Origin: a virus
Lineage: Duplodnaviria > Heunggongvirae > Uroviricota > Caudoviricetes
Length of the DNA: 38,499 bases
Strand: one strand, 5' to 3'
Virus record (IMG/VR): IMGVR_UViG_2711768065_000005
Both the position numbers and the translations under genes were made by a program. Of the stretch, positions 27,066-27,895 are shown in pieces. Below the pieces are notes generated by a model, which saw nothing but the letters and a program-made list of their open reading frames with translations, ran no database searches and had not been told where the DNA came from. Positions within the stretch are counted from its first letter, which is position 1. The number at the start of each line of letters is the position of its first letter.

Positions 27066-27221
27066 TTACTCCTCAGGTTCGTAAGCTGTGAAGACAGCGA
27101 CCTCCGTCTGGCCGGTTCGGATTCGTACCTCGCAGAGGTCTTTCCTCGTTACCAGTGCCGTCACTATGACGGTTAAACAGATGACGATCAGGGCGATTAA
27201 CATCGCCTTTTGCTGCTTCAT
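27066..27221 (-). CDS. hokD: Hok/Gef-family membrane toxin (HokD/RelF-like)
   Basis: MKQQKAMLIALIVICLTVIVTALVTRKDLCEVRIRTGQTEVAVFTAYEPEE (51 aa); an in-frame upstream Met at 27278 would give a 70-aa product. Confidence 0.8.
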   Translation of the reverse strand: MKQQKAMLIALIVICLTVIVTALVTRKDLCEVRIRTGQTEVAVFTAYEPEE

Positions 27222-27895
27222 AGCCTGCTTCTCCTTGCCTTTCGGCTCGTAAGAGGCTAACCTACATGTGTCTAGCATGAAATTGGCCTCAGATTAATGT
27301 TAAGCGTCTTGCAGGACGCGTAATGTTAACTGGGGCTTTTCTCTATCTGCCTTTGGTGTTCATGCCCGAGGCAGATAGCCTCAAGCACCCGCAGCCATTC
27401 TACTTAACTACCGTTACCTCGCCAATATGAAATCAGTCAGAAAGGCGATCCATAAGAACAATAGCAAGACAATAAATCGCCATTACAGCCGTAATAGCCA
27501 GCGCACATTTGAGAACCAGCACCACAACCTCCTGTATTGGACGTAGACCAGTCCTGATGAATATGAGGCTGTCTCGTCAGTGATTCAATACAACTATTGG
27601 GTATAGTTTCTCTGATTTTTTCTGTGGAAATGGGGCACAACCACTAGTCACCACCAGCACTTCTTTTAATACGCAAAGTCCGACACAAGCTAACCTTCTA
27701 GTCCGCTTTGAGCGAAAAACAGCCATAATTTAGTGCCACGTATATAATGATAGAGCTATTCAAGCTAGCAATTCACATGTAAAAATTCAGAGGGTAGAAG
27801 CACATAGTTATAAATGTTGGCTCCATCGACAAATTGCGGTCTCAAGTACATTTATTAATGTTGCCCCCGCATTAACAAATCATCAAGGTGACGAC

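Follow-up and report, generated by a model that had tools for sequence, protein, structure and literature searches.

Evidence for a Complete hok/mok/sok Toxin-Antitoxin Cassette of the hokD/hokW Subfamily in a Qin-like Prophage of Escherichia coli

Results

The locus and its setting

The window (the whole 38,499-nt stretch of viral DNA that was analyzed) carries on its minus strand a toxin gene of the Hok family, located within the nin-like region of a prophage of the lambdoid, Qin-like type. The gene order is cro, YdaT, DUF977, PDC-S39 (on the opposite strand), hokD, rem, ydfU and Q, and hokD is read in the direction of the early-right operon, from cro towards Q. RefSeq genomes matching the region at 100% annotate the gene as hokD; in these records only the hokD CDS is given, and mok and Sok are left unannotated. 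The divergent neighbor, 27896..29683, had been described as a candidate defense gene, and it does match the PADLOC candidate defense family PDC-S39 (E = 8e-103); a profile search also assigned the domains DUF7380 and DUF4209 to it. The features of the cassette are collected in Table 1.

Table 1. Features predicted or read in the hok cassette (positions are those of the window)
Feature	Position	Strand	Basis or remark
hok promoter: -35 TTGGCG (27425..27420), 17-nt spacer, -10 TAGAAT (27402..27397)	27397..27425	-	
Predicted full-length hok mRNA, ~419 nt	26972..27390	-	5' end by homology, 3' end at intrinsic terminator
tac (translational activator), GGGUGCUUGAGG, mRNA 5' end	27379..27390	-	Folds and covariation
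5' hairpin with perfect 10-bp repeat, arms 27378..27369 and 27352..27343	27343..27378	-	
Metastable-hairpin partner of tac, mRNA 19-29	27362..27372	-	40-nt fold and covariation
ucb / anti-SD box, AAGCCCCAG	27330..27338	-	Partner of mok SD in closed form, of tac in open form
Extra 18-nt hairpin, stem GCGUC/GACGC	27304..27321	-	Specific to hokD/hokW subfamily
mok Shine-Dalgarno, GAGG	27287..27290	-	8 nt upstream of mok AUG
mok frame, 70 aa, in frame with hok, common stop codon	27066..27278	-	ORF list, AUG conservation
Sok-target hairpin loop CUAG, directly after mok AUG	27272..27275	-	Entropy among cassettes
dcb, GCCUC	27253..27257	-	Pairs with mok SD region in open form
hok Shine-Dalgarno, AAGGAG	27231..27236	-	Sequence read
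hokD toxin ORF, 51 aa	27066..27221	-	Pfam PF01848, identity to K-12 hokD, RefSeq annotation hokD
UACG motif, Tyr47 codon	27080..27083	-	Sequence read
3' UTR 9-bp hairpin, predicted protective 3' end of processed (active) mRNA	27037..27058	-	
fbi (fold-back inhibitory), CCUCAACGCACCC	27004..27016	-	Pairs with tac, 12 bp, one bulge
hok mRNA intrinsic terminator, 7-bp stem and T-run	26972..26997	-	Terminator scan
Sok promoter: -35 TTGCCT (27235..27240), 17-nt spacer, -10 TAACCT (27258..27263)	27235..27263	+	sokC alignment
Predicted Sok, ~77 nt: 5' single-stranded tail, long hairpin, UUUUCU tail	27270..27346	+	sokC alignment

The toxin gene and the mok frame

The 51-aa ORF (27221..27066 on the minus strand, stop codon included) encodes MKQQKAMLIALIVICLTVIVTALVTRKDLCEVRIRTGQTEVAVFTAYEPEE. 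It covers the Pfam HOK_GEF profile (PF01848) completely, positions 1-42 of 42, with E = 3e-23, and its coding sequence aligned to K-12 hokD with zero differences. The toxin ORF is intact, as the initial annotation had it. HokD is reported to be toxic when overexpressed and was used as a toxic control (bioRxiv 10.1101/2025.08.07.668861). A-to-I editing by TadA, which converts Tyr to Cys, was reported for hokC/D/E of K-12 (PMC12214031), and the UACG motif at 27080..27083 is the likely counterpart of the editing site reported for K-12 hokD.

An in-frame upstream Met had also been pointed out, and the ATG at 27278 does open a 70-aa ORF (27278..27066). Among 35 related loci the mok-homologous AUG is kept in 34 and the mok Shine-Dalgarno (SD) sequence is invariant; in 25 of these loci the mok AUG is in frame with hok, at a distance of 57 nt upstream. 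An overlapping mok frame with its own SD is thus present upstream of hok, and translational coupling between the two is predicted. Because mok is in frame with hok, initiation at mok would give an N-terminally extended, 70-aa Hok. The mok gene of plasmid R1 starts 58 nt upstream of hok and out of frame, compared with 57 nt and in frame here. The earlier comparison of the 70-aa frame with Mok therefore holds insofar as its AUG is homologous to the mok start, but the arrangement resembles mokC rather than R1 mok.

Promoter, mRNA and leader

The hok promoter was found by a consensus scan (9/12 consensus matches), and its -10 element aligns with the TATAAT -10 of K-12 hokC. Only 65 bp upstream of +1 are common to other hokD-type loci. 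Position 1 of the Rfam model falls at 27390, and the GGG at the 5' end of the mRNA is invariant in 35 loci. The minimum free energy (MFE) of the predicted full-length mRNA is −175.1 kcal/mol (z = −7.8 relative to shuffled sequences), and the leader matches Rfam RF01794 with 116 bits (gathering score 59) over the whole model length, co-linear with hok. This end-to-end match to the Rfam hok/sok leader, together with the canonical states predicted below, bears out the suggestion that the leader is folded like that of a hok mRNA, and alignment to characterized hok/sok loci, together with the predicted folds, located every canonical regulatory element, mok, sok and the fold-back elements included.

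The extra 18-nt hairpin is an insertion relative to both K-12 hokC and the Rfam consensus. Thirteen of the 35 aligned loci carry it, and two compensatory changes were seen among them; with it, the predicted length of Sok rises from 59 nt to 77 nt. At the other end of the mRNA, the 9-bp hairpin of the 3' UTR is paired in 97.5% of cells, with three pairs changed on both sides; its protective role is proposed from that of R1 (PMC9841398). Of the RNA-processing traits of hok/sok loci, namely slow 3' processing of a stable mRNA, an unstable Sok and RNase III cleavage of the duplex, this predicted hairpin is the one sign visible in the sequence. Matches to IsrK-like and rsmX-like RNAs in the hok 3' UTR (26976..27062; 25.7 and 21.5 bits) are well under the gathering scores, and we treated them as a chance resemblance of two GC hairpins and a terminator. 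A 30-aa hydrophobic ORF at 27433..27525 was likewise not taken for a second hok-linked small toxin. It had no match in Pfam, NCBIfam or PADLOC, and it is not conserved beside hok cassettes elsewhere, being found next to one only in contig L001, which is the same prophage, and in one other contig, L056.

The perfect 10-bp inverted repeat that had been noticed in the hok leader is correctly placed: on the plus strand its arms read ctatctgcct (27343..27352) and aggcagatag (27369..27378), separated by a 16-nt loop. The 5' hairpin that it forms lies within the Rfam consensus stem, and in 35 loci 92.9% of its cells are paired, with G-U and compensatory changes and three pairs changed on both sides.

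Alternative folds of the mRNA

In the predicted fold of the nascent 40-nt transcript, tac pairs with 27372..27362 in a metastable hairpin (−19 kcal/mol). The full-length fold has tac paired with fbi and ucb with the mok SD, and the mok AUG and the hok start region are paired too, whereas truncation at position 360 switches the fold to tac/ucb and SD/dcb pairing. The metastable hairpin, the tac/fbi lock, the closed ucb/SD form and the open tac/ucb plus SD/dcb form are thus all present in the predictions.

The tac/fbi duplex has an energy of −21.5 kcal/mol here, and 34 of 37 loci have an equivalent duplex 44-55 nt downstream of the stop codon, with energies of −18 to −26 kcal/mol. Position 4 of tac is paired with fbi as U-A in 22 rows and as C-G in 11, and with its metastable partner as U-A in 22 and C-G in 12; position 12 alternates between G-C and A-U, a coupled covariation among the related loci. 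Metastable pairing is kept in 94.9% of cells over 35 loci, compared with 28-49% with slid partners, and three pairs are changed on both sides. Paired cells overall amount to 84-95% versus 28-51% in slid controls, the percentages being biased in that the structures tested for covariation were taken from the window's own MFE. The ucb and dcb columns are invariant across loci, and the core pairs of tac/ucb and SD/dcb, being invariant, speak neither for nor against the structure; the dcb stem agrees with the Rfam consensus stem.

The Sok antisense RNA

Annotated K-12 sokC (16952..17010) maps exactly onto 27270..27346, and the Sok RNA predicted there folds with −30.5 kcal/mol (z = −5.3). Its promoter was not flagged by a simple consensus scan, the -10 element TAACCT having three of six consensus matches. 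The homologue of this element is what primer YO-421 replaces in a promoter-less sokW construct, and the mutation abolishes the antitoxin activity of sokW (PMC8621323); the hokW probe YO-597, which spans the Sok promoter, has one mismatch to the window. We predict, then, a cis-encoded antisense gene across the mok start with its own promoter and terminator. An antisense RNA locus had been proposed earlier over 27280..27400. The predicted Sok overlaps that interval. The match to the Rfam 'sok' model does not mark the antisense gene. That model runs co-linear with hok as far as the hok AUG and so describes the hok leader, and its match to the plus strand is insignificant (18 bits, E = 0.39).

In the Sok-target hairpin, the CUAG loop and nt 3-6 of the predicted Sok are complementary. 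Among 62 unique phage-borne cassettes, the entropy of the loop is 1.63-1.76 bits, near the maximum, compared with 0.21 on average at the third codon positions of hok, and at least eight loop variants occur among otherwise near-identical hokD/hokW-type cassettes in which the hairpin itself is preserved. The number of hokD-like copies per E. coli genome has a median of 2 and reaches 9-10. In the two multi-copy genomes that were compared, there are three distinct loop alleles each, which is not significant.

Distribution and the K-12 arrangement

A tblastn search of the full 38.5 kb found no homologue of RelE or RelB (best E = 1.4), and the window does not have the K-12 arrangement, in which relB/relE is joined 14 nt before the hokD ATG. 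The region 26850..27235 is 99.5% identical to K-12, and homology breaks off between 27236 and 27235, 14 nt upstream of the hokD ATG. As K-12 matches only up to this point, it has lost the whole leader, and its relBE-hokD arrangement is a derived truncation that removed the leader together with its regulation. The relBE rearrangement is the known cause of hokD 'inactivation' in K-12 (PMC12214031). Of 5426 complete E. coli genomes, 4024 (~74%) have the window-type leader-hokD junction and 1168 the relE-hokD junction. The earlier observation that K-12 hokD adjoins relBE, which the window does not have, is accurate, but the absence of relBE is no anomaly and represents the common, complete state. 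Cassettes of 95-99% identity are also found in sequenced phage genomes, for example, mEp460, HannyBb, Evi and Tritos, where they are annotated as MokW or HokD.

Discussion

[quoted passage not shown] Its sequence elements, predicted folds, covariation and homology were all observed directly in the alignments and predictions above. The type of cassette is already known, and a close paralogue, hokW-sokW, has been studied experimentally in prophage Sp5; the biology of hok/sok as currently understood is unchanged by any of these results. Their main value is one of annotation, a full hok/mok/sok module in place of a lone toxin gene. It also follows that the textbook relBE-hokD arrangement of K-12 is a minority, truncated state, and that the regulated cassette persists in the majority of E. 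coli genomes. The cassette forms one edge of a variable cargo slot in Qin-like/lambdoid prophages, beside the PDC-S39/DUF4209 gene; the slot holds relBE in K-12 and other genes elsewhere.

By homology to hok/sok of R1 and hokW-sokW of Sp5, transcription, 3' processing, Sok action and toxicity in the source strain may be pictured as follows. A sigma-70 promoter would give a stable mRNA of ~419 nt, with tac kept in the metastable 5' hairpin while the transcript is nascent. In the finished mRNA, tac would pair with fbi near the 3' end and ucb would mask the mok SD, shutting out both ribosomes and Sok. Slow 3' trimming to the hairpin at 27058..27037 would remove fbi, whereupon tac would pair with ucb and the mok SD would enter the SD/dcb hairpin, the presumed Sok target. 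The ~77-nt Sok (27270..27346, plus strand) would pair there via its 5' tail and block translation of mok. If Sok were lost, mok would be translated from 27278 and HokD would be made, which would depolarize the inner membrane.

An intact sequence is no proof that the cassette is active. The cassette may serve mainly in the phage lytic cycle, as hokW does, and not as a classical addiction module, a reading that we put forward tentatively. Antiterminated read-through after induction could disturb the convergent Sok promoter, so that HokD would be released and would help lysis. The orientation of hokD with the early-right operon fits this, as does the co-transcription of K-12 hokD with relBE from an upstream promoter, as relBEF (PMC3598666). 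[quoted passage not shown] However, the read-through and interference steps are ones that we infer, the cassette has a promoter and a terminator of its own, and Qin-like prophages are often defective, so that the part of a lysis helper may be moot in the source strain.

It seems unlikely to us that the cassette is structurally intact but a physiologically silent passenger, with no role in prophage maintenance, lysis or defense. K-12 does tolerate hokD without any Sok, and the account of Pedersen and Gerdes (1999) given in bioRxiv 10.1101/2025.08.07.668861 has chromosomal hokA, hokB and hokC conferring neither post-segregational killing nor a response to rifampicin. Against this, every regulatory element is kept, with compensatory changes. 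The cassette is also found in sequenced phages and in about 74% of the complete genomes of E. coli, and the close paralogue hokW-sokW is a working toxin-antitoxin system that roughly doubles Sp5 phage release (PMC8621323).

As for the 10-bp inverted repeat, the window has eight distinct perfect repeats that are 10 bp or longer and enclose a loop of 3-30 nt, compared with ~1.3 expected from first-order Markov simulations of the window, and one such repeat is unremarkable by its length alone. It matters because it lies inside the 116-bit RF01794 match and is kept in 35 related loci. In the hok mRNA, the repeat makes up the apical stem of the tac stem-loop at the 5' end, and it is not a separate Sok element; that it might be the ucb/dcb pair is ruled out by the definitions of these elements (PMC9841398) and by the predicted folds. 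The notion that it is unrelated to hok, being a terminator or operator of the divergent DUF4209/PDC-S39 gene or a chance occurrence, can draw on its intergenic position between divergent genes and on the number that chance alone would produce in a sequence as long as the window, but is highly improbable, given that the repeat falls within the stretch matched by the Rfam hok-leader model, 518 bp from the DUF4209 start, has been kept, with compensatory changes, by hok loci whose upstream neighbors are quite different, and has no T-run after it on either strand.

A more speculative matter is the variable Sok-target loop. We are rather doubtful, but its variants could be specificity alleles under diversifying selection that keep co-resident prophage cassettes orthogonal. 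If true, they would be akin to plasmid incompatibility groups set by antisense kissing loops, and CUAG would be the allele of the window.

Comparison with known hok/sok systems

The close paralogue hokW-sokW of Sakai prophage 5 and Stx2 phages (Takada et al. 2021, PMC8621323) is also a lambdoid-prophage cassette with a 51-aa Hok. The published hokW-sokW oligonucleotides differ from the window by 0-1 mismatch in tac, the 5' hairpin, the Sok promoter and fbi, and both cassettes have the long subtype of Sok, with 71 nt of complementarity reported for sokW and ~77 nt predicted here. They differ at 6/30 positions in the Sok-target loop and mok start region (probe YO-592) and at the C-terminus of the toxin, where HokW ends in ...VDYESEK (from the tagging primer) and the protein studied here in ...TAYEPEE. 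The host prophage and the neighboring genes differ as well. No hok feature is annotated between 14 and 24 kb in the phage 933W record AF125520.

The relBE-hokD (relBEF) locus of K-12 Qin has the hokD ORF, 3' UTR, fbi and terminator in common with the window, and the same is true of rem, ydfU and ydfT further downstream. Upstream of position -14, relE/relB takes the place of all that the window has there, so that the hok promoter, tac, ucb, mok start, Sok target and Sok promoter, all present in the window, are missing from K-12 Qin.

The leader of K-12 hokC (gef) aligns with the window from the -10 element to the stop codon, and the alignment is broken only by the 18-nt insertion that forms the extra hairpin here and that hokC does not have. 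The mokC and hokC frames are in frame and have a common stop codon, as here, with 69 aa for mokC compared with 70 aa. The -10 region of sokC is CACTCT, whereas it is TAACCT in the window. Homology is lost soon after the stop codon, beside IS186, and hokC is without fbi. The hokC locus is chromosomal and outside prophages, whereas the cassette of the window is prophage-borne.

The hok/sok (parB) system of R1 (PMC9841398) has the same set of elements, and its three-state folding pathway, a metastable hairpin, a closed tac/fbi form and an open form with tac/ucb and SD/dcb pairing, is the one predicted here. Identity to the R1 Hok protein is ~44%, a figure reported for HokW versus Hok. R1 hok/sok is plasmid-borne, and its post-segregational killing is proven.

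Organization of the hokD cassette

A complete hok/mok/sok cassette occupies the locus; its expression, processing, control by Sok and role in the strain are inferred. The 51-aa Hok/Gef ORF is intact, as the initial annotation had it, and a search of the ORF and of every regulatory element found no inactivating change. An in-frame ATG at 27278 (minus strand), with GAGG 8 nt upstream, lengthens the ORF to 70 aa. The earlier suggestion of a Mok-like product from this Met is upheld, as the ATG aligns with the conserved mok start, kept as a start codon in 34 of the 35 related hok loci that we aligned. 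The mok AUG lies 57 nt 5' of the hok AUG in 25 of these loci, in frame, with a 68-70 aa product; 58 nt away and out of frame in 7, a spacing that we take to be the plasmid R1 arrangement; and 56 nt away in 2. The K-12 mokC and hokC genes are also in frame, as in the window, since one stop codon serves both. Because the AUG is aligned, and both the spacing class and mokC/hokC are in frame, the 70-aa frame is by sequence comparison a mok homologue of the mokC type.

The hokD Tyr47 codon lies within a UACG motif (27080..27083, minus strand) in a sequence identical to that of K-12 hokD, where this site is reported to undergo A-to-I editing by TadA (Tyr to Cys) at a low level of 6% (PMC12214031).

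Features of the hokD cassette and its surroundings
Feature	Position	Strand	Basis or detail
hokD ORF, 51 aa	27221..27066	minus	Pfam HOK_GEF, E = 3e-23
Predicted Sok RNA, 77 nt	27270..27346	plus	sokC alignment
Sok promoter, TTGCCT-17-TAACCT	-10 at 27258..27263	plus	6 nt from -10 hexamer to Sok start
Extra 18-nt perfect hairpin, GCGUC-CUGCAA-GACGC	27304..27321	minus	insertion vs hokC and Rfam consensus
Full-length fold	27390..26972	minus	-175.1 kcal/mol, z = -7.8
tac/fbi pairing, full-length fold	27390..27379 with 27016..27004	minus	predicted fold
Inverted repeat as stem following tac/fbi, full-length fold		minus	predicted fold
ucb/mok SD region, full-length fold	27336..27330 with 27292..27286	minus	predicted fold
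mok AUG and hok SD/start, likewise paired, full-length fold		minus	predicted fold
tac/ucb, transcript truncated at position 360	mRNA 1-8 : 53-59	minus	predicted fold
mok SD/dcb, transcript truncated at position 360	27290..27286 : 27257..27253	minus	predicted fold
Nascent hairpin, first 40 nt	tac with 27372..27362	minus	predicted fold
DicF sRNA	33693..33744	plus	gathering threshold
Two cspA-type thermoregulator leaders (Qin cspB/cspF-like genes)	19996..20412, 23270..23662	minus	gathering threshold
Divergent neighbour, 595 aa, DUF7380 + DUF4209	27896..29683	plus	PADLOC candidate defence family PDC-S39, E = 8e-103

The perfect 10-bp inverted repeat of the leader was read correctly (27343..27352 and 27369..27378 in plus-strand coordinates, loop of 16 nt). 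Its length on its own proves little, because about 1.3 perfect repeats of such size are expected by chance in the window and 8 are seen; its meaning comes from its context. Rfam family RF01794 matches 27390..27216 (minus strand) over the entire model length, scoring 116 bits against a gathering score of 59. Because this model is co-linear with hok, stopping at its AUG, what it represents is the open conformation of the hok mRNA leader. We took the definitions of the hok mRNA elements from PMC9841398: full-length mRNA has a tac/fbi stem and a mok SD masked by ucb, 3'-processed mRNA has the stems tac/ucb and SD/dcb, and nascent RNA holds tac within a metastable hairpin (PMC9841398). Folding of the predicted transcript reproduced all three states, and the proposed hok-type leader folding is supported.

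The possibility of an antisense RNA was also raised, and the annotated K-12 sokC (16952..17010) maps base for base to the region of the predicted Sok. The Sok predicted here has a 5' tail, a long hairpin and then UUUUCU (-30.5 kcal/mol, z = -5.3), and is 18 nt longer than SokC owing to the extra hairpin (27321..27304). This insertion occurs in 13 of the 35 aligned loci, the Escherichia/Kluyvera hokD/hokW subfamily, with two compensatory changes.

The 3' UTR of hok (hairpin, fbi and terminator; 26976..27062, minus strand) gave sub-threshold Rfam matches to isrK (25.7 bits, E = 0.007) and rsmX, which probably reflect chance likeness of GC hairpins plus a terminator.

Conservation and variation among hok loci

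Sampling one genome per species, we found 53 related loci in Escherichia, Shigella, Kluyvera, Citrobacter, Pseudocitrobacter, Pantoea and Photorhabdus. Of 37 distinct loci, 34 have a tac-complementary segment (-18 to -26 kcal/mol) at 44-55 nt past the stop codon. The tac sequence varies (GGGUGC or GGGCGC; GAGG, GAGA or GAAG) and its partners change to match. In the 35-sequence alignment, tac position 4 pairs with fbi as U-A in 22 rows and C-G in 11, and with its metastable partner as U-A in 22 and C-G in 12. Such coupled covariations are a described property of the hok mRNA family. Paired cells amounted to 84-95%, vs 28-51% with partners slid by 1-3 columns, for structures derived from the window's own folds. 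Covariation is uninformative for the cores of tac/ucb and SD/dcb, which do not vary across loci.

Eighty contigs, from phages or prophages and bearing the tac-plus-hairpin pattern, yielded 62 unique 425-nt cassettes of the hokD type. Variability among these otherwise near-identical sequences is concentrated at mRNA positions 116-119 (27275..27272, minus strand), right after the mok AUG; these bases make up the loop of the Sok-target hairpin and are complementary to Sok nt 3-6. Loop entropy is 1.63-1.76 bits, vs a mean of 0.21 and a maximum of 0.80 at third codon positions of hok. There are at least 8 loop variants, with the hairpin kept at -12 to -15 kcal/mol (-8.3 in one rare variant), and the mok AUG, SD and dcb are invariant. 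The variants may be Sok/hok specificity alleles, diversified among co-resident copies. The passages on hok and Sok in a review of TA cross-interactions do not mention loop hypervariability.

Prophage setting and the K-12 relBE-hokD locus

An 801-nt query (26900..27700) has 100% matches in many complete E. coli genomes, where the ORF is annotated hokD. Judged by its genes (cro-like, YdaT, DUF977, divergent DUF4209, hokD, rem, ydfU (DUF968), the Q antiterminator ydfT, cspF/cspB and lysis genes), the neighbourhood is a Qin-like lambdoid prophage, an identity confirmed by DicF and two cspA-type leaders.

The initial annotation was right that K-12 hokD adjoins relBE, that the window has neither gene (RelE/RelB homologues were sought throughout it and none was found), and that the neighbour is a candidate defence gene. 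The hokD-rem-ydfU-ydfT order is shared by K-12 Qin, which carries relE and relB directly 5' of hokD; relBE-ydfV-flxA fill the slot taken here by the PDC-S39 gene. Genes directly 5' of hokD-type cassettes differ widely, and the position looks like a variable cargo slot, because unrelated genes (QueH-like, TnpB, unknowns) occupy it elsewhere.

Identity to K-12 is 99.5% over 26850..27235 and stops abruptly 14 nt 5' of the hokD ATG, beyond which K-12 has relE and the window a 155-nt leader and promoter. The hok and Sok promoters and the entire leader are thus lost from K-12. This loss is the "genomic rearrangement" to which the lack of canonical TA components at K-12 hokD has been ascribed (PMC12214031); there hokD (relF) is co-transcribed with relBE (PMC3598666). 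Searched with 81-nt junction-spanning queries, 5426 complete E. coli genomes gave the K-12 relE-hokD junction in 1168 and the window-type leader-hokD junction in 4024, so hokD without relBE is the common, complete state.

In Kluyvera sp. CHPC 1.2972, relE-type sequence is likewise fused directly 5' of a hok ORF, with the junction placed slightly differently, so the relBE-hok fusion extends beyond E. coli K-12-like strains. Just 5' of the hok promoter in the window lies a 30-aa hydrophobic ORF, MVLVLKCALAITAVMAIYCLAIVLMDRLSD (27433..27525, minus strand), preceded by AGGAGG. It has no match in Pfam, NCBIfam or PADLOC and no RefSeq annotation, does not accompany hok cassettes at other loci, and may encode a small membrane protein missed by annotation or have no product at all.

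Possible roles and relation to hokW-sokW

Two views of the role of the cassette are compatible with the structural assignment. Prophage induction may be when it mainly acts: hokD is oriented as the early-right operon, towards Q, and transcription reading through might disturb the convergent Sok promoter. Alternatively, the cassette may in practice be silent, which has been reported of some hok loci on chromosomes.

The complete hok/mok/sok cassette assigned here is of a known, widespread kind, with a close relative studied experimentally. It occurs at 95-99% identity in the phage genomes mEp460, HannyBb, Evi and Tritos, annotated MokW or HokD. The hokW-sokW locus of prophage Sp5 is a working type I TA system; upon mitomycin C treatment sokW RNA vanishes and HokW is produced in a RecA-dependent manner, and hokW-sokW deletion halves phage release (PMC8621323). 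The 71 nt of complementarity between sokW and the hokW 5' UTR (PMC8621323) fit the long Sok predicted in the window. Compared with the window, hokW-sokW oligonucleotides show 0-1 mismatch in tac and the 5' hairpin and 1 mismatch each in the Sok promoter and fbi, and the 6 mismatches of the sokW probe are located in the hypervariable loop region. The mutagenic primer for promoter-less sokW replaces the homologue of the TAACCT hexamer of the window.
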